Assembly: GCA_036676315.1 (NCBI GenBank)
Contig: JAKFDB010000067.1
Span: 2,180-66,179 of the forward strand
Reading direction: 5' to 3'
DNA from: Bradyrhizobiaceae bacterium
GTDB taxonomy: Bacteria > Pseudomonadota > Alphaproteobacteria > Rhizobiales > Beijerinckiaceae
Length of the DNA stretch: 64,000 nt
Shown here: in pieces, positions 31,398-59,832 of the stretch
Position numbering within the stretch: the stretch's first letter is position 1
How the letters are laid out: every line of letters begins with the position of its first letter
Program-made: the position numbers and the translations under genes
Notes under the pieces: model-generated
The model's input: only the letters and a program-made list of their open reading frames with translations
What the model was told of the DNA's origin: nothing
The model's database searches: none

Positions 31398-33764
31398 CTA
31401 CACCGGCGGCGCGTTGGCCTTGCGGACGCGCTCGCCGACCGCCCGGAAGAGACCTTCGAAGGGGCGGAAGACGAAGCGGATCGTCGAGCGGCCGGGCGGC
31501 ACCTGCACGGCGCGGAAGATGACGTTCGCCCGAAGCAGCTCGGCCGGCTTGCCGTTGACCTCGACCTGCCACCAGGGCTGCCAGACATCGTTGAGGACGA
31601 CGAAGCCGCCGCGCGGCGCCTCCGCCTCCAGCGTGACCTCCGTGGTGCCGTAATCGCGGATGCTCACCGTGCCGGGCCCGGCAGCGCCGCCCGGCAGTAC
31701 GGGCGGCGTCCTGTCGAGCAACACCGTGCGCCGCGGATCGAAGCCGGCGGGCCATTGGCCGCTCTTCAGGATGGCGTCGAAATCGGCAGCTTGCGCCTCG
31801 CTGACGAGCAGGACGCGCGGCAGGGCGCGCGGGTTCTCGTAGATGAAGGCGTCGGCAGTGCGGGCGATCTGGATGAGGTCGCCGGGCTTCAGCGCCTTGT
31901 CGATCTGCTCGACCGGCACGCCGGTGGCGATGAAGCGCAGGCCGAGCATGTCGGCGAGCAGCGAGCGATAGGACGGCATCAGCGCCGAGAAGGTCCGCTG
32001 GTCGGGCAGGGCGACATGATCGCCGGCCCCGGTGGCGGCGCTGTAGAGGCCGAGCCGCAGGGGATTGTAGCCCAGCGTGTTGTCGAGGCCGTGGACGAGG
32101 CTGGCATTGGGCCAGTGGAAATCGATGCCGGCGAGCTCGATACGGTCGCGCCGGTCAGGCCCGGCGGTGCGGGCGGTCTCACGCTTGAGCAGTCCGATGG
32201 TCTCGTTGCTGCTGTCGGCGCGCAGCACCTCGTATCTGGATGCGGGCAGCGCCGTCGATTCGCTCGGGCCGTTGTTGACCGAGAGATCGATGGTCATGGT
32301 CATGGCGAGAATGATGGCAGCGCCCATGCCGGCGCCCTGCAGGGCCAGCCCGCGCGCCGCGACGAGGGCGCCTGCGACCAGCAGCAGGCAGAGTGCGGCG
32401 GTGATCAGCGGGATTGCGGCCACGCCGAGCCTTCCGCTCGTCCAGGCCAGCCAGATGGCGAGGCCGAAGGCGCCGCCGAGCAGCGCAACCTCGAGGACGA
32501 TCTGCCAGGGCCGGGGCCGCGGCGCCGTATCCGTCAGGACGAGGTGGGTGAAATAGCCGCCGAGGATCGCGAGCAGTGCGCCGAGGATGAAGAGCGCATC
32601 GGCCGGCCGGCGATAGAGATCGATGCCGGGAAGCGCGGCGAAGAGGATCTGGAAGCCCGGCGTGTAGCGTCCGAGCGCGTAGACCAGCACGAGGATGGCG
32701 GCGATGCTGAGCGCCACGATCTCGCGCCGCCAGAGGCCGCCGCGCACGAGGCCGACACCGACGACCAGCAGCAACGGCAGCAGGCCGAGATAGAGCTCGC
32801 TCATGTTGCGGGCGAGATAGAGATCGACCGGGCCGAAGCGTGCCTCCCAGGCCGGGCTCGGCGGCCCCCAGAAATTCTCCAGCGGGCCGGCGGCGCCATA
32901 GAGATTGGCGACGATCCCGGTCAGCAGCGAGGCCGGGTGCAGCGAGCCCTTGCCGGCACCGGCAAGGTCGATCGCGGGCCGGTTGGATTCCTGGGCCAGG
33001 AAGGCGGTGAGCAGGATCGGTACAGCGGCGACCAGCACCGCGCCGACGACGCCGAGGCAAAGCGGCATCAGGCTGGCCCGGAGGGCCTTCAGCGGCCGGC
33101 TCGCCATGGCGATCGCGGCGAGCACCAGGCCGGAGAGGACATAGACGCCGATCAGCGCGACCTGGTCGCGCCCGAGCACCATGAAGCCGGCGACGATGCC
33201 GGCGCAGAAGCCATAGCTCCAGGAGCCGCGCTCCAGCGCCCGCGAGAGCAGCAGCAGGGTGACGGCGAAATAAGCCAGGCTGAGTACCTGGCCGACATGC
33301 TGGATGCGCCAGGCGGCGGCGGCCCCGAAAGCGAAGGCGAGGGCGCAGACCACAGCGCCGGCCGGATGCCAGTTCCGGTCGCGGAAGACCAGGGCGAGGC
33401 AGAGCGCGCCGACCAGCAGGGAGCCGAGCAGCGCCCCGTCGCTCCAGCGGAAATCCGGGGTCGGGTTGACCAGGGCGATCAGGGCGAAGGGCGGCGAGAA
33501 GATCAGCGATTGCGGATCGGCGACCTGCGGCGAGCCGGCGAAGACGAAGGGCGTCCAGAACGGCGAAAGCCCCTTGTGCAGGGCGCTGGCGAGGAACTGC
33601 AATTGCGGGTGGAAATGCGCCTTGGCGTCCCAGGGAACGGTGAGGACGCCGGAAAGCCAGGGCCAGGACAGGGCGAGCCAGGCGGCGCAGATGATCAGGA
33701 AGACCTTGGCGACGGGCCAGGGTGCGCGCGCTGGCGCGGGATCGGGACGCTCTTGCTCGGACAT
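31398..33764 (-). CDS. YfhO-like polytopic membrane protein (putative GT-C glycosyltransferase)
   Basis: About 13 TM segments, N-terminal PWDAKAHF...WTPFVFAGSPQVADPQ and C-terminal GFVVLNDVWQPWW...RANVIFRAVQVPPG typical of YfhO. Confidence 0.7.
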   Translation of the reverse strand: MSEQERPDPAPARAPWPVAKVFLIICAAWLALSWPWLSGVLTVPWDAKAHFHPQLQFLASALHKGLSPFWTPFVFAGSPQVADPQSLIFSPPFALIALVNPTPDFRWSDGALLGSLLVGALCLALVFRDRNWHPAGAVVCALAFAFGAAAAWRIQHVGQVLSLAYFAVTLLLLSRALERGSWSYGFCAGIVAGFMVLGRDQVALIGVYVLSGLVLAAIAMASRPLKALRASLMPLCLGVVGAVLVAAVPILLTAFLAQESNRPAIDLAGAGKGSLHPASLLTGIVANLYGAAGPLENFWGPPSPAWEARFGPVDLYLARNMSELYLGLLPLLLVVGVGLVRGGLWRREIVALSIAAILVLVYALGRYTPGFQILFAALPGIDLYRRPADALFILGALLAILGGYFTHLVLTDTAPRPRPWQIVLEVALLGGAFGLAIWLAWTSGRLGVAAIPLITAALCLLLVAGALVAARGLALQGAGMGAAIILAMTMTIDLSVNNGPSESTALPASRYEVLRADSSNETIGLLKRETARTAGPDRRDRIELAGIDFHWPNASLVHGLDNTLGYNPLRLGLYSAATGAGDHVALPDQRTFSALMPSYRSLLADMLGLRFIATGVPVEQIDKALKPGDLIQIARTADAFIYENPRALPRVLLVSEAQAADFDAILKSGQWPAGFDPRRTVLLDRTPPVLPGGAAGPGTVSIRDYGTTEVTLEAEAPRGGFVVLNDVWQPWWQVEVNGKPAELLRANVIFRAVQVPPGRSTIRFVFRPFEGLFRAVGERVRKANAPPV

Positions 33765-33788
33765 GGCCGCTTCCTGCCCCAGGCCCCG

Positions 33789-33836
33789 CACGGGATCAAT
33801 GCCCGACACGGGATCAGTGCCCGGCGCGAGGTCAAT
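33789..33836. repeat. 18-nt-period tandem repeat at the ribA 3' end
   Basis: CACGGGATCAATGCCCG (33789), CACGGGATCAGTGCCCG (33807) and a degenerate third copy CGCGAGGTCAAT overlapping the ribA stop. Confidence 0.6.
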
Positions 33837-34959
33837 CCTTCGGTGCGGCCCGCGCCATCAGCGCGTCCATGTCGATGAAATGGCCGGCCCGGTCGCGCTT
33901 CGAGGCGAGGTAGCGGACATTGTGGACGTTGGGGCGCCCGAGCACGCGCTGGGTCGCCGCGACTTCCAGCCCGGCCGCCTTGATCGCGCCGACCTTGAGC
34001 GGGTTGTTGGTCAGCGCCGTGATCCTGCTGACGCCGAGCTGGGTCAGCATCGCGGCGGCGAAGTCGAAATGGCGCTGGTCGAGATCGAAGCCGAGCACTT
34101 CGTCGGCGTCGTAGGTGTCCCAGCCCTGGCTCTGCAGCTTGTAGGCGCGCATCTTGTTGGAGATGCCGTTGCCGCGGCCTTCCTGGTCGAGATAGAGCAG
34201 GATGCCGCCCTCGTTCTGGGCCATCCACTCGACCGTCTCGCGCAACTGGTCGCCGCAATCGCATTTCAGCGAGCCGAACAGGTCGCCGGTCAGGCAGGCG
34301 GAGTGCAGGCGCACCGGTACGGCGGCCGAGAGGTCCGGCTTGCCGACGATGATCGCCACCTGATCGCGCAGGCCCTCGCCGCCGCGGAAGACCACGAATT
34401 CGGTATCGGGCGCGCCTTCCAGCGGCACCGGCGCGCGGCCGACGATGGCGAGCGTCGCCACCTGCGCGGCACGGTAGCCGTTGATGGCGGTGATGTTGGC
34501 CTCGACCAGCGGCTCCCCGGCGATTTGCGCCGCGGCAACCGGCACCAGGACCACCGCCGGCAGGACGAGCGCAAGCCGTGCCAGTTCGAGTGCCGCGGTG
34601 TCGAGCGCGTTGGCCGGACCGACCGGCGCATCGACGCGCGCCTCGATCTTGAGGGCAAGGGCTTCGACGCGGGCGATGTCGATTGCGGGCATGGCGAGGA
34701 CGCCGGTCTCGCTGCGGCCCTTGGCTCCAAGGCGGCGCAGGCGTGCGGCGCTCAGCACCAGCCGGGCATTGCCTTCGGCGAGGCCGTCGAGCCGCCCGGC
34801 GATGTCGGTGTCGGCGAGCTCTGCCGAAAGCGCCAGCGCCAGCGTCTCGCCGTCGCGCAGCAGCACGGGTCGGCCGGCACGGAATTCGGCGAGTGCCCGG
34901 TCGACTGCGATGATCTCGGTCTCGCCGGGACGGCCGAAAAGCGTACGCGACTTAGGCAT
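33832..34959 (-). CDS. ribA: GTP cyclohydrolase II with degenerate RibB-like N-terminal domain
   Basis: VRLHSACLTGDLFGSLKCDCG Zn motif, QEGRG and TNNPLK. Confidence 0.92.
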   Translation of the reverse strand: MPKSRTLFGRPGETEIIAVDRALAEFRAGRPVLLRDGETLALALSAELADTDIAGRLDGLAEGNARLVLSAARLRRLGAKGRSETGVLAMPAIDIARVEALALKIEARVDAPVGPANALDTAALELARLALVLPAVVLVPVAAAQIAGEPLVEANITAINGYRAAQVATLAIVGRAPVPLEGAPDTEFVVFRGGEGLRDQVAIIVGKPDLSAAVPVRLHSACLTGDLFGSLKCDCGDQLRETVEWMAQNEGGILLYLDQEGRGNGISNKMRAYKLQSQGWDTYDADEVLGFDLDQRHFDFAAAMLTQLGVSRITALTNNPLKVGAIKAAGLEVAATQRVLGRPNVHNVRYLASKRDRAGHFIDMDALMARAAPKD

Positions 34960-35060: not shown

Positions 35061-35085
35061 AACGTGTCCAGTCGTGTGTGGTTCC
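35061..35085 (-). promoter_or_regulatory. EcfG/sigmaT-type promoter upstream of ribA
   Basis: Minus strand GGAAC CACACACGACTGGACA CGTT (N16), about 100 nt upstream of the ATG. Confidence 0.75.
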
Positions 35086-35229: not shown

Positions 35230-35814
35230 ATGATGCAGGCACATGACCCCATGACCGGGATCGCAGGTCGTGATGCCGTCTACAGCGCCGCGGCGCGGCG
35301 GTTCCACTGGGTCACGGTGGCGGCGGTCTTCGTGATGATCCCGCTGGGCCTTGGCATGACCTATCGCGGCAACACGCTCAATCTCTGGGACGGGCTGACC
35401 AACGGGCTCTATTCCGCGCACAAGCTGCTCGGCTTCATCGTGCTCTGGCTGACTGCCGGCCGGCTGGTCCACCGGCTGCTGCGCGGCGCTCCGCCTGACG
35501 AGCCGACACTCGAATGGTGGCAGAAGGCCGCGTCCCATCTGGTCCATTGGGCGCTCTACGGATTGCTGCTCGCGGTGCCCTTGCTGGGCTGGATCGGGGT
35601 CTCGCTGTTTCCGGCGCTGACGATCTTCGACCTGTTCAACCTGCCGGCGCTGGCCAGGCCCGATGAGGAGGCTGCCAAGCGGGTGCTTGCGCTGCATGGC
35701 TGGCTCGCGAGGCTGCTGGCGCTCGCCATAGTCGGGCATATCGGCGCGGCGCTCTATCACTACTTCATCCGCAAGGATGGCGTGCTGCGGCGCATGCTGC
35801 CGGGGGTGAGATAG
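35230..35814 (+). CDS. Cytochrome b561 (YceJ/CybB-like)
   Basis: RRFHW, HKLLG, SHLVHWALY and HGWL...GHIGAALYHYF...VLRRML heme-ligand pattern. Confidence 0.9.
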   Translation: MMQAHDPMTGIAGRDAVYSAAARRFHWVTVAAVFVMIPLGLGMTYRGNTLNLWDGLTNGLYSAHKLLGFIVLWLTAGRLVHRLLRGAPPDEPTLEWWQKAASHLVHWALYGLLLAVPLLGWIGVSLFPALTIFDLFNLPALARPDEEAAKRVLALHGWLARLLALAIVGHIGAALYHYFIRKDGVLRRMLPGVR

Positions 35815-35817
35815 GCC

Positions 35818-36336
35818 TCACCAACGGCCGTCGGCGGGTTCCCCCGCGGCGATTTCGGCGAGCCGGCGACGTGTGCCGGGCGTCGTGCCTTCCGGCAGGG
35901 CCGAAAGCGCGAAGAAGCCCGCTTCGGCGATCTCGTAATCGGGCCGTTTCGGCGCGGGTGGCGCGAAATCGCGGACCACGAAGACCGCGACATGATCGCG
36001 CTGCGAGCTCTCGCAGCTGAGAAACAGCCCGTGCAGCACGGCCGGCCCGCTCAGCACGACATTGGCCTCCTCGCGTAGCTCCTTGCTGAGCGCCTCGGCG
36101 GCGGTCTCGCCCGGCTCGACGCCGCCGCCCGGCAGGTGCCAGCCGGGCGTGTAGGTGTGGCGCACCAGCAGGACCTCGCCCGCCTCGTTCAGGACGGCGC
36201 CGCGGACGCCCAGCGTCATGCCGCGGCTGACCCGGAAATACAGGTGCAGCACCTGGCCGATCAGGCGCCGCAGCGGCCTGGGCAGCCGATCGATGGGCGC
36301 GCGCGACGGGTTTCGCATCGGAGTCGAACTGCTCAT
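35818..36336 (-). CDS. NUDIX hydrolase (start 36336 or 36318)
   Basis: LPGGGVEPGETAAEALSKELREEA Nudix box. Confidence 0.9.
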   Translation of the reverse strand: MSSSTPMRNPSRAPIDRLPRPLRRLIGQVLHLYFRVSRGMTLGVRGAVLNEAGEVLLVRHTYTPGWHLPGGGVEPGETAAEALSKELREEANVVLSGPAVLHGLFLSCESSQRDHVAVFVVRDFAPPAPKRPDYEIAEAGFFALSALPEGTTPGTRRRLAEIAAGEPADGRW

Positions 36337-36371
36337 TTCAGCGCCATTTTCCAAAGCGTCGCTCAATTGTC

Positions 36372-36388
36372 TATGCAAGGTATGCATA
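36372..36388. promoter_or_regulatory. LysR-type palindrome (T-N11-A)
   Basis: TATGCA-AGGTA-TGCATA, i.e. ATGC-N7-GCAT, in an AT-rich divergent intergenic region. Confidence 0.55.
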
Positions 36389-36474
36389 ACAGCTCTCTGT
36401 TTGGCCTCGGGCTCCAACACAAACGCGCCGCAAATCAGGAGGATAAAGCCGACATCACCGCTGGGGAATTCGTC

Positions 36475-36591
36475 ATGTTGCTCGCCCTCATCACCTCCTG
36501 GTTTCAGGCCAAGCCCGCCTTCGTCTGGAAGCCGGCGTTGACCCTGACCGACCCGCGCATCGTCTCCGAGCTGACCGCCTCGCTCAACTGA
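36475..36591 (+). CDS. Putative 38-aa small protein MLLALITSWFQAKPAFVWKPALTLTDPRIVSELTASLN
   Basis: Nearly all codons end in G/C like host genes; sits in an otherwise empty gap downstream of the palindrome. Confidence 0.6.
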   Translation: MLLALITSWFQAKPAFVWKPALTLTDPRIVSELTASLN

Positions 36592-36674
36592 GCCGGCCGC
36601 GGGCCCTGCGTCACATTCATCCGATTGCGCGTCTGCGCTTGACTGCGCCTGCCTGCTGAGGGCAAGCGCAAGGC

Positions 36675-37574
36675 GTGTTCACGCTTGCGCATCTGTCGGA
36701 CCCGCATCTCGGGCCGCTCGCCCGGTTCTCCCTGCGGGAGCTGATCGGCAAGCGCGCGACCGGCTATGTCAACTGGCGGCGGAAACGCCGCCATGCGCAT
36801 GACATGGAGATCCTCGGGCTGATCGTCGCCGATATCCTGGCGCAGAAGCCCGACCACATCGCCTGCACCGGCGACGTCTCCCATATCGGCCTGCCGAACG
36901 AGTTCAAGACGGCGCTGACCTTCCTCGACACGCTCGGCCCGCGCGAGAAGGTCTCGTTCGTCCCCGGCAATCACGACGCCTATGCCCGCTCCTCGCTGAA
37001 AGCGCTGGCCGGCGAACTCGGTCCCTGGTGCGCCAGCGACGACGGCGAGGCCGGCTACCCCTGGTATCGCCGGCGCGGCCCGGTCGCTCTGATCGGCATG
37101 AACACCGGCATCCCGACGCTGCCGCTGATGGCGACCGGCCGCATCGGCCCGGCGCAGATCGTCCTGGCGGAGCGAATGCTCGCGCAGGCCAAGGCCGACG
37201 GCCTGATCCGCGTCATCCTGATCCATCACCCGCCCTATGTCGGCGGTGCCCGGCGCACCCGTGAACTGCTCGACGCGCCGGCCTTCGAGGCGATGCTGGC
37301 GCGTGTCGGGGCCGACCTCGTCCTGCACGGCCATAATCACCGCTTCTCACTGGCCTGGCGGCCGGGCGCGGGCCGGGACGTGCCGATCGTCGGCGTGCCC
37401 TCGGCCTCGATCGGGCCGCGCGGCGGCCATGGCGAGCTCGCCTCCTGGCATCTGCTGCGGATCGAGGGGACGGCGGAGGCTCCGGCGATCACCCTCGAAC
37501 GGCGCTGCTTCGACCTCGACGGCACGGTGAAGCTGCAGCAGTCGATACCGCTGATCGGCGGCGGGATGGTCTAG
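36675..37574 (+). CDS. Calcineurin-like metallophosphoesterase
   Basis: LSDPH, TGD, VPGNHD, HHPP and LHGHNH motifs; GTG start. Confidence 0.92.
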   Translation: MFTLAHLSDPHLGPLARFSLRELIGKRATGYVNWRRKRRHAHDMEILGLIVADILAQKPDHIACTGDVSHIGLPNEFKTALTFLDTLGPREKVSFVPGNHDAYARSSLKALAGELGPWCASDDGEAGYPWYRRRGPVALIGMNTGIPTLPLMATGRIGPAQIVLAERMLAQAKADGLIRVILIHHPPYVGGARRTRELLDAPAFEAMLARVGADLVLHGHNHRFSLAWRPGAGRDVPIVGVPSASIGPRGGHGELASWHLLRIEGTAEAPAITLERRCFDLDGTVKLQQSIPLIGGGMV

Positions 37575-37585
37575 GAACCGGCGTC

Positions 37586-37681
37586 GTCATTCTCGGGCGA
37601 AGCGCAGCGCAGACCCGAGAATCCCATGACGAGAAGGTGCCTCTTCCGGCGCGAGATGCTCGGATCAAGTCCGAGCATGAC
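37586..37681. repeat. CGTC-tagged palindromic repeat, subfamily B
   Basis: GTCATTCTCGGGCGAAGCGCAGCGCAGACCCGAGAATC...GATGCTCGGATCAAGTCCGAGCATGAC; similar to 52807 and (reversed) 41034. Confidence 0.85.
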
Positions 37682-37694
37682 GCGTGTCTCGCCG

Positions 37695-38441
37695 TCAGAC
37701 GCAGCGGCCGCCGTCGACGGCGAGCACCGAGCCGGTCACCATCTCGGATTCATCCGAGCACAGGAACAGCGCTGCGTTGGCGATGTCCTGCGGCGTCGAG
37801 AAGCGGCCCCAGGGTATCGTCGCGGTGAAGGCCTTGCGCTTCTCCGGCGTGTCCTCGCCCATGAAGGTCGCGAGCAGCGGCGTCTCGCCGGCGACCGGGG
37901 CGATGGCGTTGACGCGGATCCGGTCAGGCGCGAGCTCGACGGCCATCGACTTGGAGAGCAGGTTCGCGGCGCCCTTCGAGCCATTGTACCAGGTCAGACC
38001 GGGCCGGGGGCGCACGCCCGCGGTCGAGCCGATATTGAGGATGACGCCGCCGCCATGCTCGCGGAAATGCGGCACCGTCGCCTTGGCCATCAGGTAGATC
38101 GACTTGACGTTGACGTCGAAGACGCGGTCGAATTCGGCCTCGCTGACGTCGAGCATCGGCTGGTTGCGATGGCTGATGCCGGCATTGTTGACGACGATGT
38201 CGAGCCGGCCGAAGCGGGCGATCACCTTCGCCACGGCGCTGTCGACGCTCTTGCCCTTGCCGACGTCGCAGGCGACCGCGAAGGCCTTGCGGCCGATCGC
38301 CTTAGCCGCTTCCTTCGCCTTGTCGCCGTTGATGTCGAGCACGGCGACGCGGGCGCCCTCGCGCACGAAGGTCTCGGCGATGCCGAAGCCGAACCCCTGC
38401 GCCGCGCCGGTAATCAGCGCGGTCTTGCCCTTCAGTCTCAT
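37695..38441 (-). CDS. SDR family oxidoreductase (FabG-like)
   Basis: TGAAQGFG, NNAG and YNGSK motifs. Confidence 0.92.
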   Translation of the reverse strand: MRLKGKTALITGAAQGFGFGIAETFVREGARVAVLDINGDKAKEAAKAIGRKAFAVACDVGKGKSVDSAVAKVIARFGRLDIVVNNAGISHRNQPMLDVSEAEFDRVFDVNVKSIYLMAKATVPHFREHGGGVILNIGSTAGVRPRPGLTWYNGSKGAANLLSKSMAVELAPDRIRVNAIAPVAGETPLLATFMGEDTPEKRKAFTATIPWGRFSTPQDIANAALFLCSDESEMVTGSVLAVDGGRCV

Positions 38442-38580
38442 GGTGTTTCCTCGGATGCTTTCTGCCGCGCGACTGTGGGGCGATTTGCCGGCCGGGATAA
38501 ATACGCTTTCGCGATTGGGCGGATAGCGAAAAGGTATGGGCCGATGGCGTTCTCGGGCGGAGCGCCGGATGAAGGGCGCG

Positions 38581-38720
38581 GGGAACCCTTCTCCCGTGTG
38601 GGAGAAGGGCAGGGATGAGGGCCTGCCCTATCCGCAGAAGGCACAGCGACCCTGCATCGCTTCAATAATCAGCGGCGGTCCCTCACCCCTGCCCCTCTCC
38701 CATCCGGGAGAGGGGTTCCC
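38581..38720. repeat. MITE-like CCCTCTCCC/GGGAGAGGG family repeat
   Basis: 15-bp near-perfect terminal inverted repeats GGGAACCCTTCTCCC / GGGAGAGGGGTTCCC, each end folding into its own hairpin. Confidence 0.75.
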
Positions 38721-38726
38721 CGCGCC

Positions 38727-40538: not shown

Positions 40539-40659
40539 GGCGTTCCTTCGATGTCAGGCCGCCCGGATAGACCGCCCGGCCGCCACTGTCACGCCCGGCA
40601 CCGAATTTGCCTGTCCACCATAGGATACGAATCGTATCTTTTAGTGGATGAGAGGCCCT

Positions 40660-41016: not shown

Positions 41017-41033
41017 CGGACGAGCACGGGGCC

Positions 41034-41144: not shown

Positions 41145-41159
41145 GCGGCGCTCAGGCTT

Positions 41160-42203: not shown

Positions 42204-42264
42204 GGCGGGCGCGGCTCGAAAGCGAGAAAGGGAGTGCTGCGGCGTCAGGCGAGCCGCAGCGGGT

Positions 42265-44045: not shown

Positions 44046-44110
44046 GGAATTCTCTTCAATCGATTCAGCCGGGGCAAGCTAGTCCGATCCGCCCGCCGCG
44101 TCATGCGGAT

Positions 44111-44135
44111 AACGCGACTGGCGGCACTCCGTTCC
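44111..44135 (-). promoter_or_regulatory. EcfG/sigmaT-type promoter upstream of hyi-glk-acyltransferase
   Basis: Minus strand GGAAC GGAGTGCCGCCAGTCG CGTT (N16), about 65 nt upstream of the ATG. Confidence 0.72.
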
Positions 44136-44185
44136 GGCATGCTGGGCAGGATGTCGGCTCAGCTGCGGCTCTGGCCCGGCGCCAT

Positions 44186-44938: not shown

Positions 44939-45000
44939 GAAGAGGCCCCCGGTCCGCAATCTGACGCCTAGCCCATGCGCCTCGCTCTGAAAACTCGCTA

Positions 45001-45098
45001 TCGTCCCGGGCGACCGCAGGGAGACCCGGGACCCATGCCGGAACCGTTCAGGCATGGGTCCCGGATCGGCGCCGCTGACGCGGCTTGTCCGGGATGAC
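45001..45098. repeat. Mosaic GTC-tagged palindromic repeat
   Basis: Left half is the reverse complement of the subfamily A right arm; right half GGATCGGCGCCGCTGACGCGGCTTGTCCGGGATGAC is shared with 62868. Confidence 0.8.
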
Positions 45099-45124
45099 CT
45101 TCGAGGGAGTCGCTCGTGCGAAGG

Positions 45125-46117
45125 CTACTTCTTCGCTTCCGGCTTGGCCGGCGGGTTCGGGTCCTTCGAGAAGTTGCGGAAGACCATGTCGGGCGAGGAG
45201 GTGTTGTGGCGCGAATGGGTGGCGCGGCCCATCCAGACATCGGTCGCCTTGCCGCCGGTGAAGGGCATCAGGGGCTCCTCGCGCCAGCCCTTGGCGCCGG
45301 GCTCGCGGATGGCGATGCGGGCGACGTCGTTGTTGAATTCGGTGACATACATCGAGCGCAGCGCGGCGAAGGCCTTGCCGCCGGTGACCGGCTTGTCGAG
45401 CACCGCGTCGAGCACCATGCGGTTCTGGTCGACGCTGTCGAGCTTGAGCGTGCCGGCGGAGCCGTCCTTGAAGGCGAGGTTGAAGGAGAGCGTCTTCGGG
45501 TCGAAGGCGATCTCCCTGATGTTCACCACCGGCCGGGCGCCGTCCTGCTCGACCGGGCCGAACAGGAAGGAGGAGCCGTAAGCCGCGGCGGAGAGCTGCT
45601 GCGGCGGCAGCGGCCGGACGCGCCAGTAGCCGTCCTGCGGATAGACGACGAGCACCTCATAGGAGCCGGTCTTGCCGAGCTTCCAGAGTTGGACGAGGTG
45701 CAAGCCCTTCTCGACGCGGTCGCCGACCCGGAAGGTCGTCTCGGCCGGGCGCCAGAAGCTCTCGAAGGTGTAGCCGACCAGCCAGTACTCGATGCTCTCG
45801 TAGAAGGTGACCCGCTGCGGCGGCACGGGTGCCTTGAAGACCGGATCGCCGGTCATGTCGCAATCCGTCCAGTCGGCATCCCAGTTGTCGCGCAGGAGCC
45901 CGGCGATGTAGGCCGGATGCGCCGCCTCGATGCGGAAGCGCCGGACCTCCGGCGAGATCGCCTTGATGGTGACGTTGTCCTTTTCGGCACAAAGCACCGG
46001 CTCGGATTCGTTCTTGACCTCGACGGCGACATCGCTGGCAGCATGGGCCGGCAGGGCGAACAGAAGCGCCAGTGGAACGAGCAGTGGGCGCAGGCGCGCA
46101 GGAAGCGTCATCATCAT
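45125..46117 (-). CDS. Secreted/periplasmic hypothetical protein, beta-rich
   Basis: Sec signal ending AHA; starts 4 nt after the fkbM stop; host-like codons; no family recognised. Confidence 0.8.
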   Translation of the reverse strand: MMMTLPARLRPLLVPLALLFALPAHAASDVAVEVKNESEPVLCAEKDNVTIKAISPEVRRFRIEAAHPAYIAGLLRDNWDADWTDCDMTGDPVFKAPVPPQRVTFYESIEYWLVGYTFESFWRPAETTFRVGDRVEKGLHLVQLWKLGKTGSYEVLVVYPQDGYWRVRPLPPQQLSAAAYGSSFLFGPVEQDGARPVVNIREIAFDPKTLSFNLAFKDGSAGTLKLDSVDQNRMVLDAVLDKPVTGGKAFAALRSMYVTEFNNDVARIAIREPGAKGWREEPLMPFTGGKATDVWMGRATHSRHNTSSPDMVFRNFSKDPNPPAKPEAKK

Positions 46118-46121
46118 CGAA

Positions 46122-46880
46122 TCAACCTTGCAGGATGGCGTAGATATCGCCCGAATTGGCGGTGTGCGGCAGGTCGCGGATATAGCCGCCCATGACCTCG
46201 GTGCCGACCGCCTCCGGGAAGACCAGCTTCTGGCTTTCACCGAGCGCGACATTGAAACGGTAGGGACCGAGCGCCTCGACGAGAGCGAGGCAGGCCTCGG
46301 CGACGTCGCGCTGGATGGTGGTGAATTCGAAGGAGAGTGCTGGGACCGGCCGCGTCAGCCCGGCCAGCACATGCGCCTCGAAACCCTCGACATCGATCTT
46401 GACGAAGGCCGGCAGGCCGTACCGGCAGATCAGCGCATCGAGCGTGGTGCAGGGAACCGAGAGTTCACGGTCCCAGACCTGTTCGCGCCAGCCATCGGCA
46501 TTGCTGGCGGCGCCGACGAAATCCTGTGAAACGGTCGAGACCGTCGGGTTGGCGCTGTTGATCCGGAGCGCCACCGTGCCCGGCCGGTCGCCGCAGGCAG
46601 CCTCGACCAGGGTGACATCGGGGTCGCGGCCATGGATCAGCCGGATGGCGCGGGCCGGGCCCGGCTGCGGCTCGAGGGCGACGACGCGCGCGCCGAGCCG
46701 GCGGAAGGAGGAGATGCGATCGCCGACATGCGAGCCGATATCGAAGGCGAGGTCGCCGGGGCCGAGAAACCGGGCGTAGAGGGTATCCATCGCGGCGTTG
46801 CGGACCCGGTCGCCATGGTAGACGCGCAGCGAGCGCGACAGGCTTTTCGCCGTGCCCTTGGGATAGGCGACGGACTTCAT
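46122..46880 (-). CDS. FkbM family methyltransferase
   Basis: FDIGSHVG, VALEPQP and FVKIDVEGFE; ATG overlaps the opgH stop (ATGA). Confidence 0.9.
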   Translation of the reverse strand: MKSVAYPKGTAKSLSRSLRVYHGDRVRNAAMDTLYARFLGPGDLAFDIGSHVGDRISSFRRLGARVVALEPQPGPARAIRLIHGRDPDVTLVEAACGDRPGTVALRINSANPTVSTVSQDFVGAASNADGWREQVWDRELSVPCTTLDALICRYGLPAFVKIDVEGFEAHVLAGLTRPVPALSFEFTTIQRDVAEACLALVEALGPYRFNVALGESQKLVFPEAVGTEVMGGYIRDLPHTANSGDIYAILQG

Positions 46881-48709
46881 TTCGGCTCGCCCGCCAGAAT
46901 GGCGGTGAGCTCGGCCGGCGGATCGAAATCCTCCGGGATGCCGCAGAGGCCGCGGCGCGCGAACCAGCGGCCGAGCGCCGGCGAGGCGGTGAGCATGGCG
47001 AAGGGGATCGCCAGCACGTAGCCCGCGGTCAGCGGCAGCGACCAGAGCAGCACCGTCGGCGAAAGCAAGGCGAGCGCCCCGAAGATGTAGAGGCCGAAGA
47101 GCAGGTGCGGCCACAAGCCCGCGAAGGCGGTGGCGAAGGAGAGGGCGTGGGCATCGCGGGCCTGGCCGTTCCAGCCGATCCTCGCCTTGCCGAAGGCGAG
47201 GCCGACCATGAAGATCGTGGTCCGGAAGGTCGAGACCGCGCCCTGCAGGAAGGCGAAGACGATCTCGATCAGCGAGGAGGCGACGAAGCGGCCGGTCCCG
47301 CCATAGCGCTTGGTGCCGCCCTTGCTGAGCAGGATGTCGGCGAAGCCGGCGAGCTTCGGCGAGAGATACATCGCGAAGAACAGGACATAGAGAGTGGCGG
47401 CCAGGCCGGCCGGGTAATCGGCGAGGCCGCGATCCTCCCAGACCTTCACCGGCAGCAGCGCGATCATCAGCGTCCAGGCCGGCAGGCCGATGAACATCAG
47501 GATCGCCCAGGCGAGCTGGAAGCGGCTCATGAACTTGAGCCCCGGGATATCCATCAGCTTGAGATATTGCAGGTTGCCGAGGCACCAGCGCAGGTCGCGC
47601 CGGGCGAATTCGAGCATGGTCGGCGGGTTCTCCTCCCAGCTGCCCATCTCGACCGGCAGGACGCGCACTTCATAGCCGGCGCGGCGCATCAGGGTCGCCT
47701 CGACCTGGTCATGGCTCATGACATGGCCGCCGAGCGGCGGGCCACCCGGCAGGACCGGCAGATGGCACTCGTCGCGGAAGGGCGCGATCCGGACCATGGC
47801 GTTATGGCCCCAGAACGGGCCGCAATCGCCGATCCACCAGGCCGAGCCCATGGTGTAGGGCCGCATGCCGTGGCGCATGCCGAACTGGAAGATGCGCGCA
47901 AAGGCCGATTTGCTCGGCATGCCGACGACGAGGCTCTGCAGGATGCCGAGCTTCGGCCAGGCCTGCATCATCCGGGCGAGTTTCACGATCGCCGCGCCGG
48001 ACATGACGCTGTCGGCGTCGAGCGGCAGCATGACCTCGTAGCGCTCGCCCCAGCGTTCGCAGAAGTCGCGGACATTGCCGGCCTTGTAGCCGGTATTATC
48101 GGTGCGGCGGCGATAGGTCAGGCGCGAGGCGTCGCCGATCGTGGCGGCAAGGGAGGCGGCGAGCTTTTCCTCCGCCGCGGCGACTGCCGGGTCGTCAGTG
48201 TCGGAGAGCACGAAATAGTCGAACCACTCGCCTTCGCCGGTGGCATCGAGGCTCGCCTTGACGATCTCGAGGCGGCGGAAGGCGCGAGCCGGGTCCTCGT
48301 TGCGCAGCGTCATCAGGATTGCGGTGCGGATCGCGATCGGCGTCGGGGCATCGCCTGCGGCGGCGAAGGGCGCAACGCGGCGCTGCCCATCCTCGATGCC
48401 ATGCAGCAGCCAGAGGCCGATCACGGCGTTCCAGAAGCCGAGCACCGTCCAGGGCGCGCCGAACAGGAAGGCGATGAAGATCACGATGTCCGCCGCACTC
48501 CAGCCGCCGGCCGAGAGGACGCGCGAGAGGCCGTAGAGCAGGGCGGCGAGCGTCGCCAGGTTGAGGCCTGCGACCAGCAGCCGGCGCGCACGCAGCGTTC
48601 CTGTCGCCTGGAGGCCGGCCGGGGTCAGGCCCGGACCAAGCCGTTGCTCTTGCGCCGCCGCCTGGAACGTGGTCGGACCGGGACGCTGGTTCATGGCGGA
48701 CTCTGTCAT
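46877..48709 (-). CDS. opgH: Glucans biosynthesis glucosyltransferase OpgH/MdoH-like GT2 (short form; start 48709 or 48694)
   Basis: RNEDP, YFVLSDTDD, GYKAGNV, LDADS, FWGHNA, SHDQVEA and RRDLRWCLGNLQ. Confidence 0.88.
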   Translation of the reverse strand: MTESAMNQRPGPTTFQAAAQEQRLGPGLTPAGLQATGTLRARRLLVAGLNLATLAALLYGLSRVLSAGGWSAADIVIFIAFLFGAPWTVLGFWNAVIGLWLLHGIEDGQRRVAPFAAAGDAPTPIAIRTAILMTLRNEDPARAFRRLEIVKASLDATGEGEWFDYFVLSDTDDPAVAAAEEKLAASLAATIGDASRLTYRRRTDNTGYKAGNVRDFCERWGERYEVMLPLDADSVMSGAAIVKLARMMQAWPKLGILQSLVVGMPSKSAFARIFQFGMRHGMRPYTMGSAWWIGDCGPFWGHNAMVRIAPFRDECHLPVLPGGPPLGGHVMSHDQVEATLMRRAGYEVRVLPVEMGSWEENPPTMLEFARRDLRWCLGNLQYLKLMDIPGLKFMSRFQLAWAILMFIGLPAWTLMIALLPVKVWEDRGLADYPAGLAATLYVLFFAMYLSPKLAGFADILLSKGGTKRYGGTGRFVASSLIEIVFAFLQGAVSTFRTTIFMVGLAFGKARIGWNGQARDAHALSFATAFAGLWPHLLFGLYIFGALALLSPTVLLWSLPLTAGYVLAIPFAMLTASPALGRWFARRGLCGIPEDFDPPAELTAILAGEPK

Positions 48710-48755
48710 GCGATGGGCTGAGCGGAAGCTGGCAGGGAACGTCGCGGAGGTCGGA

Positions 48756-49754
48756 GTGATAGAACCGGCAAAGGCCGCCAAGGCAAGCGGCAAAGCGGCT
48801 GCAACAGCGCTCTGGTATGTCGCGCCGCGTGAATGCGCCCTGAACGACCTCGAGCTGCCGCAGCGCGGACCGCAGGACTGCCTTGTCCGCGCGCTGTGGA
48901 GCGGCATCAGCCGCGGTACGGAACGGCTGGTCTTCGAAGGGCGGGTTCCGGTTTCCGAGCATGACCGCATGCGCGCTCCGTTCCAGGAGGGCGCCTTCCC
49001 GTTCCCGGTCAAATACGGCTACTGCGCCGTCGGAACCGTCGAAGAAGGCCCTCCGGTGCTCGTCGGCGAGACCGCGTTCTGCCTCTATCCGCATCAGGAT
49101 CGCTTCGTCGTGCCGGCCGGCCGCGTCGTGGTGGTGCCGAAGGCGGTGCCGGCGCGGCGGGCCGTGCTCGCCGCCAACATGGAAACGGCGCTGAACGCGC
49201 ATTGGGACGCCGGCTCCGGCCCGGCCGACCGGACCGTCGTGGTCGGCGGCGGCGTGCTCGGCCTGCTCGTCGCCTATATCGGCGCGCGGTTGCCGGGCGC
49301 GCAGGTGACTTTGGTCGACATCGATCCGGGGCGCGCTGCGCTGGCGGCGGCGCTCGGCTTCGACTTCGCCTTGCCGCAGGACTGCCCCGGCGAAGCCGAT
49401 CTCGTTTTCCACGCCAGCGCCAGCGCGGCGGGCCTGTCGACCGCCATCGGCGCGGCCGGCTTCGAGGCCCGCATCGTCGAATTGAGCTGGTATGGCGAGG
49501 GCGTGGTCGCGGTTCCGCTCGGCGGCGCCTTCCATTCGAAGCGGTTGCAACTGGTCTCGTCACAGGTCGGGCAGGTCTCGCCGTCGCGCCGGCCGCGCTT
49601 CGACTATGCGCGCCGGACGCAGGCCGCGCTGTCGCTGCTGGCGGACGCCCGGCTCGATGCGCTGATCACCGACGAGATCGCCTTCACGGAAGCGCCGGAA
49701 CGGTTACCGGCGCTGTTCGCCGGCGCAGGGCTGACCGCGGTTCTGCGCTATTGA
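48756..49754 (+). CDS. MDR/zinc-binding alcohol dehydrogenase-like protein
   Basis: GGAGG RBS and GTG; SGISRGTE, PVKYGY, ANMETALN and VVGGGVLG. Confidence 0.85.
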   Translation: MIEPAKAAKASGKAAATALWYVAPRECALNDLELPQRGPQDCLVRALWSGISRGTERLVFEGRVPVSEHDRMRAPFQEGAFPFPVKYGYCAVGTVEEGPPVLVGETAFCLYPHQDRFVVPAGRVVVVPKAVPARRAVLAANMETALNAHWDAGSGPADRTVVVGGGVLGLLVAYIGARLPGAQVTLVDIDPGRAALAAALGFDFALPQDCPGEADLVFHASASAAGLSTAIGAAGFEARIVELSWYGEGVVAVPLGGAFHSKRLQLVSSQVGQVSPSRRPRFDYARRTQAALSLLADARLDALITDEIAFTEAPERLPALFAGAGLTAVLRY

Positions 49755-49774
49755 GTGCTCAAACTCATTGCCGG

Positions 49775-49879
49775 GTCATCCCGGCCGGAGCGCAGCGAAG
49801 AGCCGGGATCCATGCCTGAGCCTTGCCGATAAAGGTTCCGGCATGGGCCCCGGGTCTCCCTTCGGTCGCCCGGGACGAC
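49775..49879. repeat. Subfamily A palindromic repeat inside the dehydrogenase-PTPS operon gap
   Basis: Closely similar to 9949-10053. Confidence 0.85.
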
Positions 49880-49946
49880 TCGCGTCGGGGAGGGTAGGCA
49901 GAAGCGCGCGGCGGCCTTAAGCAGACTGTGCTGAAGGAGACCACGC

Positions 49947-50348
49947 ATGTTTTCCGTCGAAGTCCGCGACCGCATCATGATCGGCCACTCCCTGCCGGAC
50001 CCGTTCTTTGGCCCGGCGCAGGGGATGCATGGTGCGACCTTCATCGTCGATGTCGCCTTCTTCCGCGAACATCTGACGAAGCAGAACGTGGTGGTCGACA
50101 TCGGCGCCGCGCTCGATGTCCTCAACAAGACGCTGAAGCCGCTGAACTACCAGAATCTCGACGCGCTGCCGCAGTTCAAGGGCGTGCTGACGACCACGGA
50201 ATTCCTCTGCAAGCACATCTTCGACGCGATGTCGGCCGCGGCGAAATCGGGCGCGCTCGGCGCCGACGGCGCCGGCCTCGCCAAGATCCGCGTCACCCTG
50301 CACGAAACCGACCTCGCCCGCGCCAGCTATGAGGGCGCGCTCGCGTGA
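49947..50348 (+). CDS. 6-pyruvoyl-tetrahydropterin synthase-like (COG0720) protein, atypical subfamily
   Basis: T-fold pattern IGHSL...FFGPAQGMHGAT...NYQNLD...TTTEF; lacks CxxxHGH and ExxHGH. Confidence 0.85.
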   Translation: MFSVEVRDRIMIGHSLPDPFFGPAQGMHGATFIVDVAFFREHLTKQNVVVDIGAALDVLNKTLKPLNYQNLDALPQFKGVLTTTEFLCKHIFDAMSAAAKSGALGADGAGLAKIRVTLHETDLARASYEGALA

Positions 50349-51394
50349 GCGAGATCGCCTTCGCCATTCCCGGCGATCTGTCGCTGCCGACCGGCGGCTA
50401 TGCCTATGACCGGCGGCTGCTGGCGGAGTGGGCGCAGATGGGCGTGGCGGCGCATCATCTCGAGCTTCCGGGCAGCTTTCCCGCTCCGAGCGAGGCCGAT
50501 CTCGCCGAGACCGGCAGGGCGATCCTGTCGCAGCCCTATGACCGGGTGCTGCTGATCGATGGGCTTGCCTATGGCGCCTTCCCGGAGAGCATCGCGGCCG
50601 GGCTTGCCGGCCGTGTCGTCGCACTGGTGCACCATCCGCTCGGGCTCGAGGCGGGGCTTTCCCCGGAACGCGCGGCGGCCTTGCTGGCGAGGGAAGCCGC
50701 AGCGCTGCGCCATGCCAGTGCCGTCATCGTCACCAGCCCAGCCACAAAGCGTCTGCTCGTCAGCGATTTTTCCGTGCCGGAAACCCGCATCACCGTGGCC
50801 GAGCCGGGCGTTGATCCGGCGCCGCGCGCCACAGGCTCTGCCGCAGGCGCGCCGCTCCAGCTGCTCGCGGTGGGCTCGCTGGTGCCGCGCAAGGGCTATG
50901 ACGTGCTGGTCGAGGCGCTCGCCGGACTGGCCGAGCGGAACTGGCGGCTGACCATCATCGGCGCCGACCGGGCGCCGGCGACCGCGGCAGCGCTGGCGGC
51001 GCAGATCGCTGCAGCCAGTCTCGGCGATCATGTCCGGATTGCCGGTGCGGTCGACCAGGCGACGCTCGAGGCCGCCTATGCCGGCGCGGATCTCTTCGTC
51101 CTGCCCTCGCTGTTCGAGGGCTATGGCATGGTGCTGACGGAAGCGCTGGCGCGCGGCCTGCCGATCCTCTGCACCACCGGCGGTGCGGCGGCAGAGACGG
51201 CGCCCGATGCGGCAGCGCTGAAGGTTTCCCCCGGCGATGCCGAAGCGTTGCGCGCCGGGCTCGCCCGCCTCCTTGCCGATGGCGAGGAGCGCAAACGGCG
51301 TTCCGACGCCGCCTGGCATGCCGCCGGCGCATTGCCAGCTTGGCGGCAGACCGCGACAATCGTCGCCGAAACCTGTGCGAAGGTGTCACCATGA
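50345..51394 (+). CDS. Glycosyltransferase family 4
   Basis: TGGYAYDRR, VGSLVPRKGYD and PSLFEGYGMVLTEA; GTGA overlap with the PTPS-like gene. Confidence 0.9.
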   Translation: MSEIAFAIPGDLSLPTGGYAYDRRLLAEWAQMGVAAHHLELPGSFPAPSEADLAETGRAILSQPYDRVLLIDGLAYGAFPESIAAGLAGRVVALVHHPLGLEAGLSPERAAALLAREAAALRHASAVIVTSPATKRLLVSDFSVPETRITVAEPGVDPAPRATGSAAGAPLQLLAVGSLVPRKGYDVLVEALAGLAERNWRLTIIGADRAPATAAALAAQIAAASLGDHVRIAGAVDQATLEAAYAGADLFVLPSLFEGYGMVLTEALARGLPILCTTGGAAAETAPDAAALKVSPGDAEALRAGLARLLADGEERKRRSDAAWHAAGALPAWRQTATIVAETCAKVSP

Positions 51395-52230
51395 GTGGAT
51401 TTTCCCCGGACTGGCTCGCCTTGCGCGAGCCGGCCGACCATGCCGCCCGCAACCCGCAGGTGCTGGCCGCGGTCGGCGCCACCTTCTCCAGCCGGCAATC
51501 GCTGACGATCGTCGATCTCGGCTGCGGCGCCGGCTCGAATCTGCGCGGCACCTACTCGGTGCTGCCGGCGCGTCAGTACTGGACGCTGGTCGATTTCGAT
51601 GCGCGCCTGCTTGCGGTGGCTCGCGAGCGCCTCACCGATTGGGCCGACGAGGCGGAAGGGCTGGGTGAGGAGCTCGTGCTGCGCAAGGGCGAGAAGTCGC
51701 TGACGGTCGATTTCCGCCGCGCCGACCTCAATACCGATCTCGAATGGGTGCTGGGCTGGCAGCCCGACCTTGTCACCGCCGCCGCGCTGTTCGACCTGAC
51801 TTCGGTGCGCTGGCTGGAGCGCTTCGTCGCCTCGCTGGCGAGCCAGCGGCTGCCGCTCTACACGGCGCTGACCTATGACGGGCGGGAGAGCTGGGAGCCG
51901 GCCCATCCGGCCGATGCCAGGATGCTCGTCGCCTTCAACCACCACCAGCACAGCGACAAGGGTTTTGGTCCCGCCGCCGGACCGGAGGCGACCGAGACGC
52001 TGGCGCAGGCCTTCCGCAAGTCGGGCTGCGCCGTTACCGTCGGCGAAAGTCCCTGGCTGCTCGACGCGGGGAGCGCGACGCTGACGCGCGAACTGGCCGC
52101 CGGCATCGCCGCGGCGGTCGCCGAGACCGGACATGTCGAGCCGGAGACGATCGAAAGCTGGCTTGCGGCCAAGCGCGAGGCGGTTTCCGGCCGCATCGGC
52201 CATCAGGACCTATGGGCACGCCCGGTCTGA
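51391..52230 (+). CDS. Class I SAM-dependent methyltransferase-like protein
   Basis: DWLALREPAD, VDLGCGAGSN and ALFDL; start overlaps the GT4 stop (ATGA). Confidence 0.82.
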   Translation: MSGFSPDWLALREPADHAARNPQVLAAVGATFSSRQSLTIVDLGCGAGSNLRGTYSVLPARQYWTLVDFDARLLAVARERLTDWADEAEGLGEELVLRKGEKSLTVDFRRADLNTDLEWVLGWQPDLVTAAALFDLTSVRWLERFVASLASQRLPLYTALTYDGRESWEPAHPADARMLVAFNHHQHSDKGFGPAAGPEATETLAQAFRKSGCAVTVGESPWLLDAGSATLTRELAAGIAAAVAETGHVEPETIESWLAAKREAVSGRIGHQDLWARPV

Positions 52231-52296
52231 CGCCACGGCGACCTGCATCGCCGCCAATTGCCATTTCCGACAAATTCCGCCATCCCGCTCGCGACC

Positions 52297-52797
52297 ATGA
52301 CCTCCCTGCCTCTGACCATCCGCCAGGAACTGCCGGGCGACGCCGCCGCGATCGAGCGCCTGCATGAGCGTGCCTTCGGGCCGGGGCGCTATGCCCGCAC
52401 CGCCTTTCGCCTGCGCGAGGGCCGGCCGCCGGACCCGGCCCTGTCTTTCGCCAGCCATGTCGGCACCTTCCTCGTCGGCTCGGTGCGGGTGACGCCGATC
52501 CTGGCCGGTGGCGGACCAGGGCTGATGCTTGGGCCGCTGACGGTCGATCCGGCTTTCGAGGGGCGCGGCATCGGGGCTGCACTGATGAACGCCGCGATCG
52601 AGGCGGCGCGGGCCGCCGGCCACGAGCTGGTCCTGCTCGTTGGCGACGCGCCCTATTACGCGCGCTTCGGCTTCAAGCCGATCAGGCCGGGACAGCTGAT
52701 GCTTCCGGGCCCGGCCGACCCCGGCCGCTTCCTGGCGCTCGAGCTCGTCGAAGGCGTGCTGGCAAAGCGCAGCGGCGCGGTTGTGCCGCTGCGCTAG
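52297..52797 (+). CDS. GNAT acetyltransferase (YhbS-like)
   Basis: FGPGRYARTAFRLREG, LGPLTVDPAFEGRGIG and VGDAPYYARFGF. Confidence 0.88.
   Translation: MTSLPLTIRQELPGDAAAIERLHERAFGPGRYARTAFRLREGRPPDPALSFASHVGTFLVGSVRVTPILAGGGPGLMLGPLTVDPAFEGRGIGAALMNAAIEAARAAGHELVLLVGDAPYYARFGFKPIRPGQLMLPGPADPGRFLALELVEGVLAKRSGAVVPLR

Positions 52798-58803: not shown

Positions 58804-59832
<1,029 letters not shown>

Follow-up and report, generated by a model that had tools for sequence, protein, structure and literature searches.

The signature of PTPS-IV proteins is the motif FGPAQ in place of CxxxHGH or ExxHGH (PMC5445326; PMC5041015). PF00925 (GTP cyclohydrolase II) has been recorded near PTPS-IV genes in a set of 561 PTPS-IV sequences (PMC5445326), and for the function of the group only an unpublished link with archaeal F420 has been cited (PMC5041015). 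A gene for such a protein is encoded in a stretch of 64,000 nucleotides, hereafter the window, from an assembly filed as Bradyrhizobiaceae bacterium (GCA_036676315.1, contig JAKFDB010000067.1, positions 2,180 to 66,179). Close homologues of the window proteins belong to named Bosea. We read the locus as the Bosea copy of a widespread gene cluster centred on PTPS-IV, which would lead from GTP to an envelope glycoside and which has been split by an inversion; the probability of this reading as a whole is put at about 0.7.

Several described routes bear on such a cluster. Pteridine glycosides include the biopterin glucoside and cyanopterin of cyanobacteria and the limipterin and tepidopterin of Chlorobium. 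They are formed by GTP cyclohydrolase I and a true PTPS (Cys plus three His), after which a sugar is added and, for cyanopterin, a methyl group. In the archaeal and fungal order of riboflavin synthesis, GTP cyclohydrolase II (GCHII) or III is followed by a reductase of the Rib7/ArfC type before deamination. Lastly, in toxoflavin synthesis (toxABCDE) a dedicated GCHII paralogue feeds a product other than riboflavin, which is later methylated.

Coding frames of the window (G+C ~69%) were picked via third-position GC and products were named with Pfam and NCBIfam. An initial annotation of this DNA had proposed a dispersed system that joins a GTP-derived heterocycle to an envelope glycan under general-stress control; the activities it listed and both of its EcfG-type motifs were all found where it had placed them (Pfam/NCBIfam, motif scan). 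The genes that belong to the cluster, with the motif upstream of ribA and the inverted block, are the following:

31398-33809, minus strand: GT-C-fold membrane protein as predicted by a structure model, 803 aa (PMT_2 E 1.5e-4, under the cut-off)
33832-34959, minus strand: RibA, 375 aa (NF006456, 493 bits against a cut-off of 464)
35061-35085, minus strand: EcfG-type motif GGAAC-N16-CGTT, ~100 nt upstream of ribA
35230-35814, plus strand: cytochrome b561, a di-haem membrane protein, divergent from ribA (PF01292, 2.5e-27)
45125-46117, minus strand: secreted protein, 330 aa, with signal peptide (no family match)
46122-46880, minus strand: FkbM methyltransferase (PF05050, 1.7e-11; start overlaps the opgH stop)
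46877-48709, minus strand: short OpgH, a GT2 membrane glucan synthase, 610 aa (NF003963, 918 bits against a cut-off of 884)
48756-49754, plus strand: MDR-type (Zn-ADH-like) dehydrogenase, first gene of the cassette (family matches all under the cut-off)
49947-50348, plus strand: PTPS-IV, a COG0720 T-fold protein, 133 aa (FGPAQ signature; homology to SCO6650)
50345-51394, plus strand: GT4 glycosyltransferase (PF00534, 5e-31; start overlaps the PTPS-IV stop)
51391-52230, plus strand: class I SAM methyltransferase, MT (weak Methyltransf_25; ATG overlaps the GT4 stop as ATGA)
35815-52257: block in the opposite orientation to that of Bosea thiooxidans (from NUDIX to the cassette MT)

PTPS-IV was found in 20 of the 201 genomes of a class sample (200 other genomes drawn evenly from the class, together with the present one), all of different genera and nearly all of different families. 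When ±10 kb around the 19 foreign copies was compared with the window proteins, the cassette MDR-PTPS-GT4-MT, whose start and stop codons overlap (translational coupling), was colinear almost everywhere. Of these 19 flanks, 7 had OpgH as an adjacent gene, 6 had RibA at a distance of a few kb and 13 had RibD_C; beyond the cluster the flanks were not conserved. One metagenome-assembled genome carries b561-RibA-MT-GT4-PTPS facing OpgH-FkbM-secreted protein, all within 8 kb. Neighbouring open reading frames were compared all-against-all, and recurrent clusters that were antisense shadows of real genes were removed. Some families recur at the foreign loci and are not present in the window, namely a reductase-only RibD_C (13 of 19), a CDP-alcohol phosphatidyltransferase, YceI and a creatininase-family protein.

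In a species-representative collection (one genome per species) at least 591 stretches encode a PTPS-IV relative, and the best 80 loci were kept. Together with the 19 of the class sample they make up 99 loci (numbered with the prefix L), which were collapsed into 25 lineage groups at 70% PTPS identity. The families next to PTPS-IV, counted over the 80 loci and then over the 25 groups, are GT4 (72; 22), MDR (69; 24), MT (65; 22), OpgH (52; 13), RibD_C (43; 18), b561 (34; 10), FkbM (30; 9), RibA (24; 12), the secreted protein (19; 3), GT-C (11; 2) and the CDP-alcohol transferase (6; 7), with HAD-IIA at 13 loci; the ranking held after the collapse into groups. The cluster genes are neighbours in many Alphaproteobacteria as well as some Beta- and Gammaproteobacteria; outside the Alphaproteobacteria the loci are L092 (Xanthomonas sp. 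AmX2) and the betaproteobacterial L088, L093 and L104. The members of the cluster are RibA, GT-C and b561; MDR, PTPS-IV, GT4 and MT; and the short OpgH, FkbM and the secreted protein. Co-occurrence of the ribA-GT-C ("ribA-yfhO"), opgH-fkbM and PTPS modules, on which the initial annotation had staked its proposal, is borne out by these neighbourhoods and by the contiguity of the three in B. thiooxidans, and the modules probably act in one pathway.

The dispersed appearance of the cluster in the window is explained by comparison with Bosea thiooxidans DSM 9653 (genome G201, contig C22). The order of genes and strands in that genome is MoxR+ DUF58+ BatA+ GATase-like+ GNAT- NUDIX- phosphoesterase+ SDR- Uup- h122+ AT3- Glk- OtnI- secreted- FkbM- OpgH- MDR+ PTPS+ GT4+ MT+ b561- RibA+ GT-C+ HAD- KDG-kinase-, with the cluster genes contiguous. 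The order in the window, read from a draft assembly with the contig order as given, is KDG-kinase+ HAD+ GT-C- RibA- b561+ / NUDIX- ... MT+ / GNAT+ GATase-like- BatA- DUF58- MoxR-. The two differ by one inversion of ~16.4 kb (about 35.8-52.25 kb) from NUDIX to MT, with breakpoints at the b561/NUDIX and MT/GNAT junctions. Since the order MT, b561, (RibD_C), RibA, GT-C is common to genomes of Rhabdaerophilum, Alsobacter and Hyphomicrobium-like bacteria, the contiguous state is ancestral and that of the window derived. Bosea spp. Root483D1 and LjRoot237 have the MT-GNAT junction as well, an indication that they share this derived order. Very probably, then, a single ancestral cluster was split by a single inversion. 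It separated the cassette and the opgH operon from ribA, GT-C and b561, so that unrelated genes now lie between and beside the modules, and it is the reason for the position of GNAT beside MT and of NUDIX beside b561. Relative to B. thiooxidans, dN/dS is 0.11-0.40 for all cluster genes, which indicates purifying selection; because the neighbours glk, otnI and uup fall in the same range, the split cluster is still maintained. The right breakpoint is abutted by a Bat-type operon at 52920-59832 on the minus strand (MoxR AAA ATPase, DUF58, BatA/DUF4159 and a glutamine-amidotransferase-like protein). A TauE/SafE gene separates otnI from the secreted-protein gene here and in Bosea spp. Root483D1 and LjRoot237; B. 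thiooxidans has none at that position, a local insertion or loss.

The other genes within and next to the inverted block, together with the second motif, are these:

30344-31204, plus strand: HAD-IIA hydrolase (TIGR01459 family)
35818-36420, minus strand: NUDIX protein
36675-37574, plus strand: metallophosphoesterase
37695-38441, minus strand: SDR protein
38727-40538, minus strand: Uup, an ABC-F protein
41160-~42270, minus strand: AT3 acyltransferase
42265-43269, minus strand: glucokinase (glk)
43266-44045, minus strand: 2-oxo-tetronate isomerase (otnI)
44111-44135, minus strand: EcfG-type motif, 66 nt upstream of otnI
44186-45055, minus strand: TauE (TauE/SafE)
52258-52797, plus strand: GNAT protein

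NUDIX and the metallophosphoesterase were absent from all 99 related loci and thus from all 25 lineage groups. SDR likewise recurred in none of the 25, its matches being merely generic (28-38% identity). Among the 80 loci GNAT, AT3, glk, otnI and tauE occurred at Bosea loci only, except for one distant glk-like match (37% identity). NUDIX, the metallophosphoesterase, SDR, AT3, GNAT, uup, glk, otnI and tauE are accordingly non-members, neighbours in Bosea only. Five of these activities (NUDIX, metallophosphoesterase, SDR, AT3 and GNAT) had been proposed as parts of the system and are dropped from it. Of the genes set aside in the same proposal as interspersed housekeeping functions, uup and tauE do lie outside the cluster, and b561 is a recurrent member of it. 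Neighbourhood in the window alone would have wrongly drawn NUDIX, GNAT, SDR and the phosphoesterase into the cluster; that a dispersed gene layout can arise from one inversion is a lesson for annotation.

The PTPS-IV protein, the only PF01242 gene product of the genome, reads FFGPAQGMHGAT and bears the FGPAQ signature. Among 30 homologues F21, G22, P23, A24, H28, G29, A30 and T31 are invariant or nearly so. Its sole match in the PDB is SCO6650 (3D7J; E 7.4e-38, residues 1-132). No Cys or Glu stands ahead of the HG, the third zinc His is replaced by Ala, and the C-terminal ring-binding Glu is kept as E120. A GCHII gene near PTPS-IV is found for this lineage as well: ribA is adjacent in B. thiooxidans, occurs at 24 of the 80 loci and lies 15 kb away in the window on account of the inversion. 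An assignment as QueD was rejected (TIGR03367 29.2 against a cut-off of 89.25; the PTPS-I, -II and -III motifs CxxxHGH, CxxxxxHGH and ExxHGH are not present), as was a role in F420 synthesis in this genome, in which CofD is not present. Apart from this protein, the library proteins P0159, P0160, P0178, P0184 and P0192 (375-855 aa) each have three or four PTPS-IV-like domains in tandem.

For the short OpgH, scores against NF003963 in the class sample fell into two classes, at least 660 bits in 11 genomes and at most 497 in everything else, and all 11 genomes are PTPS-IV-positive. In the sample of 200 genomes, 10 of 10 occurrences fell in PTPS-IV carriers (hypergeometric p 4e-12, a value inflated by kinship). 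The present genome and two others of the 11 also carry a canonical OpgH. In the present genome the canonical opgG-opgH pair is on a different contig (C20), three further OpgG/D genes lie elsewhere, and the window contains no MdoG gene (four are found elsewhere in the genome), so that no OpgG adjoins the short OpgH. The two OpgH proteins of the genome share ~40% identity by eye, and the DAD and RDLRW motifs are kept in the short one. A distinct OpgH confined to PTPS-IV genomes, with the canonical pair elsewhere, argues that the window protein is a dedicated paralogue. Its start codon and that of the MDR dehydrogenase are 46 bp apart on opposite strands.

FkbM, found at 30 of the 80 loci, stands either beside OpgH or beside the CDP-alcohol phosphatidyltransferase. 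These two membrane enzymes, at 59 and 11 loci respectively, never occur together in the 99 loci; the transferase is encoded at L010, L011, L016, L017, L020, L089, L092, L094, L103, L106 and L109. The secreted protein was found in three genomes of the class sample, all PTPS-IV-positive, and nowhere else. It has an invariant CAEKDN motif, and its structure model is all-beta (pLDDT 86, pTM 0.84). Foldseek returned no PDB fold match for this model (best E 0.016, TM <0.2), and an OpgG-like fold, which had been considered, was left without support. The protein may represent an undescribed periplasmic fold and is possibly a periplasmic partner of the short OpgH.

RibA of the window keeps the Cys triad C-x10-C-x-C and the Tyr of RAY (E. 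coli Tyr105) in an alignment to 2BZ0, and by these residues it is assigned as a GCHII; its N-terminus is degenerate and RibB-like. A FAPy-forming GCHII like SCO6655 was rejected, since this Tyr is kept; in such enzymes Met takes its place. In a maximum likelihood tree of 42 RibA sequences, 14 cluster-linked copies including that of the window form a clade with 100/96 support. The clade has one other member, encoded on a 4.4-kb contig that does not allow linkage to be judged. Genome G034 has two RibAs, and the second of them groups with 17 unlinked copies in the other clade. On the basis of this phylogeny a cluster-specific RibA lineage exists. The Xanthomonas RibA is nested among alphaproteobacterial cluster-linked copies, which suggests horizontal transfer of the whole cluster. 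Other GCHII-like genes of the present genome encode a RibBA (C8:3093-4127), with a strong DHBP synthase and a GCHII-like domain without the Cys triad (RibBX-like), and a divergent protein that has the triad (C113:28381-28833). The window RibA is the only canonical GCHII of the genome. As the RibBA lacks the triad and the third copy is divergent, riboflavin synthesis probably depends on this cluster-lineage RibA.

In 18 of the 25 lineage groups a reductase-only RibD_C gene lies beside the cassette, with no deaminase beside it in most lineages, and a creatininase-family gene does so in 4 of 25. The creatininase family includes the archaeal formamide hydrolase ArfB. The Bosea genome has no cluster-type RibD_C reductase. 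The aglycone derived from GTP that had been postulated initially is therefore favoured by the RibA clade and by the RibD_C neighbours of other lineages, and it is left without the reductase in Bosea itself.

The 803-aa protein had been labelled YfhO-like. No YfhO match (PF09586) was obtained at E <= 0.001 in a scan of the whole of Pfam, just the PMT_2 match below the cut-off. A model built on 11 homologues (pLDDT 78.5, pTM 0.80) matched only GT-C enzymes in Foldseek (Emb, STT3, AftD, PglB and Pmt; probability 1.00, E down to 8e-5). The top 22 matches were all GT-C with probability ~1.0, yet with TM scores of 0.27-0.43. Asp61, which lies in the first loop (WDAKAH), does not vary across the 11 homologues. 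The protein is thus modelled as a GT-C-fold membrane glycosyltransferase with a C-terminal beta domain outside the membrane. Where present in the species collection its gene follows RibD_C or RibA, and in the class sample strong homologues were confined to two PTPS-IV genomes; it is a lineage-restricted accessory of the cluster, transcribed after ribA. A second GT-C paralogue with 51% identity (C192:16642-19125) lies among genes for an allantoinase-like protein, a HIU hydrolase and a urate-hydroxylase-like membrane protein. It was discarded as a functional clue, being in a purine-catabolism setting unrelated to the cluster.

Among the remaining members, b561 is encoded between MT and RibD_C or RibA at the loci that have it. 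The MDR dehydrogenase gave weak ADH_zinc_N and BchC matches and distant PDB matches. The nearest solved relatives of GT4 are sucrose-phosphate synthase, MshA, PimB and WaaG, which act on polyol phosphates and lipids. HAD-IIA borders the cluster in two different ways: its neighbour is GT-C in Bosea and the secreted protein in Hyphomicrobiaceae. It was noted in the window and at L037, L038, L044-L046, L050, L053, L058, L061 and L062, and its 13 loci all belong to one lineage group. A role as an accessory phosphatase of the pathway is possible, although the case is weak.

The window has three occurrences of the pattern GGAAC-N15-18-CGTT where 0.87 are expected; since three are also reached in 7 of 100 shuffles, the count alone does not go beyond chance. 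Upstream of ribA a motif is found at ~100 nt in the window and at 93-95 nt in B. thiooxidans and a Bosea metagenome-assembled genome, with a different spacer sequence in each, and the same three genomes have one 66-71 nt upstream of otnI; both probably are real Bosea promoters. No such motif was found upstream of ribA in other genera, nor before the cassette or opgH in the window. General-stress control, which had been suggested for the whole system, thus applies at most to ribA and GT-C, and to those in Bosea only. The otnI-glk operon, which lies outside the cluster, would be under the same control.

From these components the following pathway can be proposed. RibA would open GTP to 2,5-diamino-6-ribosylamino-pyrimidinone phosphate. 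In most lineages the reductase-only RibD_C would then reduce the ribosyl chain with the 2-amino group, and with it the 2-amino-4-oxo edge, kept; in Bosea, where RibD_C is lost, either the ribosyl form would be used or a housekeeping RibD would substitute. PTPS-IV would hold the 2-amino-4-oxo edge via its conserved Glu (E120), as T-fold proteins do. Together with the dehydrogenase it would remodel the side chain, plausibly by C2' oxidation and ring closure to a neopterin-type pterin. GT4 would add a sugar and MT would methylate. The glycoside would pass to a membrane output module, which here would be the OpgH paralogue with FkbM, the secreted protein and GT-C on the outer side, and in other lineages a CDP-alcohol phosphatidyltransferase in place of the OpgH module; b561 would serve a redox step at the membrane. 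That the product is a GTP-derived glycoside ending in the envelope is held tentatively, at slightly short of an even chance. A more specific version is doubtful: the short OpgH would prime on the GT4-made glycoside of a ribityl-diaminopyrimidine or pterin and export a heterocycle-capped, methylated glucan to the periplasm, with the ring and b561 as a redox or protective group of the envelope and a lipid-anchored counterpart in the CDP-alcohol lineages. If true, it would define a new class of envelope glycoconjugate and the first natural primer of an OpgH-type synthase.

Several points weigh against a PTPS-IV cluster that leads from GTP to an envelope glycoside. The short OpgH is not present in 9 of the 20 PTPS-IV genomes of the class sample, and the secreted protein and GT-C are confined to few lineages (3 and 2 of the 25 groups, respectively). 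As the sole canonical GCHII the window RibA must serve riboflavin synthesis too, so that its presence alone says little. Without RibD_C the first committed step seen elsewhere is missing in Bosea, and with two GTP cyclohydrolase I (FolE) genes a classical pterin precursor is also available there. Many of the 99 loci are close kin, and raw counts and p-values overstate their independence. Every chemical step after RibA is one that we infer, the joining to a polymer and the dephosphorylation included.

Some of these points would suit a soluble pterin glycoside (cofactor, pigment or signal) made from the product of GTP cyclohydrolase I, with RibA and OpgH as neighbours for regulatory or historical reasons. 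The two FolE genes and the nine genomes without the short OpgH agree with such a product, and a PTPS-family enzyme combined with a reductase, a glycosyltransferase and a methyltransferase resembles the known pteridine glycoside routes. However, PTPS-IV has neither the catalytic Cys nor the third zinc His found in true PTPS, a RibA clade specific to the cluster exists, and nearly every locus has b561 or one of the two membrane output enzymes. The recurrent neighbours, moreover, are GCHII and RibD_C; FolE was not among the recurrent families, although no search specific for FolE was made. We consider a soluble pterin glycoside unlikely.

Quite improbable is a role in the decoration or priming of a glucan, in which the heterocycle stays outside the final product and the task of RibA, PTPS-IV and the dehydrogenase is to provide a cofactor or an altered sugar donor for the OpgH paralogue. 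Strict co-occurrence of the short OpgH with PTPS-IV is expected under it, FkbM, GT4 and GT-C are sugar-directed families, and the secreted protein could process a glucan. Yet no nucleotide-sugar enzymes are among the recurrent neighbours, and the whole cassette is kept in lineages in which the CDP-alcohol transferase replaces OpgH, which argues for a small-molecule head group and not for a glucan-specific role. Mere coincidence through inherited synteny, with ribA for riboflavin, opgH for ordinary periplasmic glucans and an unrelated PTPS operon, would fit the housekeeping genes between the modules, the single canonical GCHII and an EcfG motif count not above chance, but it is very improbable given an OpgH paralogue confined to PTPS-IV genomes with a canonical opgG-opgH elsewhere, an association that survives different gene orders and reaches Beta- and Gammaproteobacteria, a cluster-specific RibA clade with two copies in G034, and flanks that are not conserved outside the cluster.

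As read here, the PTPS-IV cluster draws GTP away from riboflavin synthesis and seems to finish at enzymes of the membrane; its product may be an envelope component or cofactor not yet described, and the cluster may explain the role of a second, OpgG-less OpgH. Named culturable carriers are Bosea thiooxidans DSM 9653, Azorhizobium oxalatiphilum, Methylobacterium isbiliense, Neorhizobium sp. JUb45 and Agrobacterium larrymoorei. In the literature that could be searched, no paper on the cluster came up, nor one that ties PTPS-IV to the OpgH paralogue, b561, GT-C or the secreted protein. What this window adds is the inversion, a list of the genes inside and outside the cluster, the cluster-specific lineages of RibA and OpgH, and the mutually exclusive output modules.

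Similar to the pteridine glycoside routes, the cluster combines a GTP-derived ring, a PTPS-family enzyme, a side-chain reductase or dehydrogenase and glycosylation. In contrast to them, its partners are GCHII and a reductase-only RibD_C, and its end points are membrane enzymes. It resembles the early steps of archaeal and fungal riboflavin synthesis in the pairing of GCHII with a stand-alone RibD_C, and in the creatininase-family gene of a few lineage groups. It differs from riboflavin pathways in that no lumazine or riboflavin synthase genes lie alongside and that the reductase is lost in Bosea. The toxoflavin system, although it also employs a dedicated GCHII paralogue and methylation, has no PTPS-IV, GT4 or membrane output enzymes, and its accessory enzymes differ. 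With OpgGH glucan synthesis the short OpgH shares the DxD and RxxRW motifs of GT2 and a score above the NF003963 cut-off; unlike OpgGH it is shorter, is accompanied by FkbM and the secreted protein instead of OpgG, and is found in PTPS-IV genomes only. The nearest solved relative, SCO6650 of Streptomyces coelicolor, is actinobacterial, and the gene set around PTPS-IV is kept from Alpha- to Gammaproteobacteria. SCO6650 and the window protein both carry FGPAQ, lack the Cys and the third His and are homologous over their full length; to this known setting of PTPS-IV the window cluster adds an OpgH paralogue, b561, GT-C and a secreted protein.

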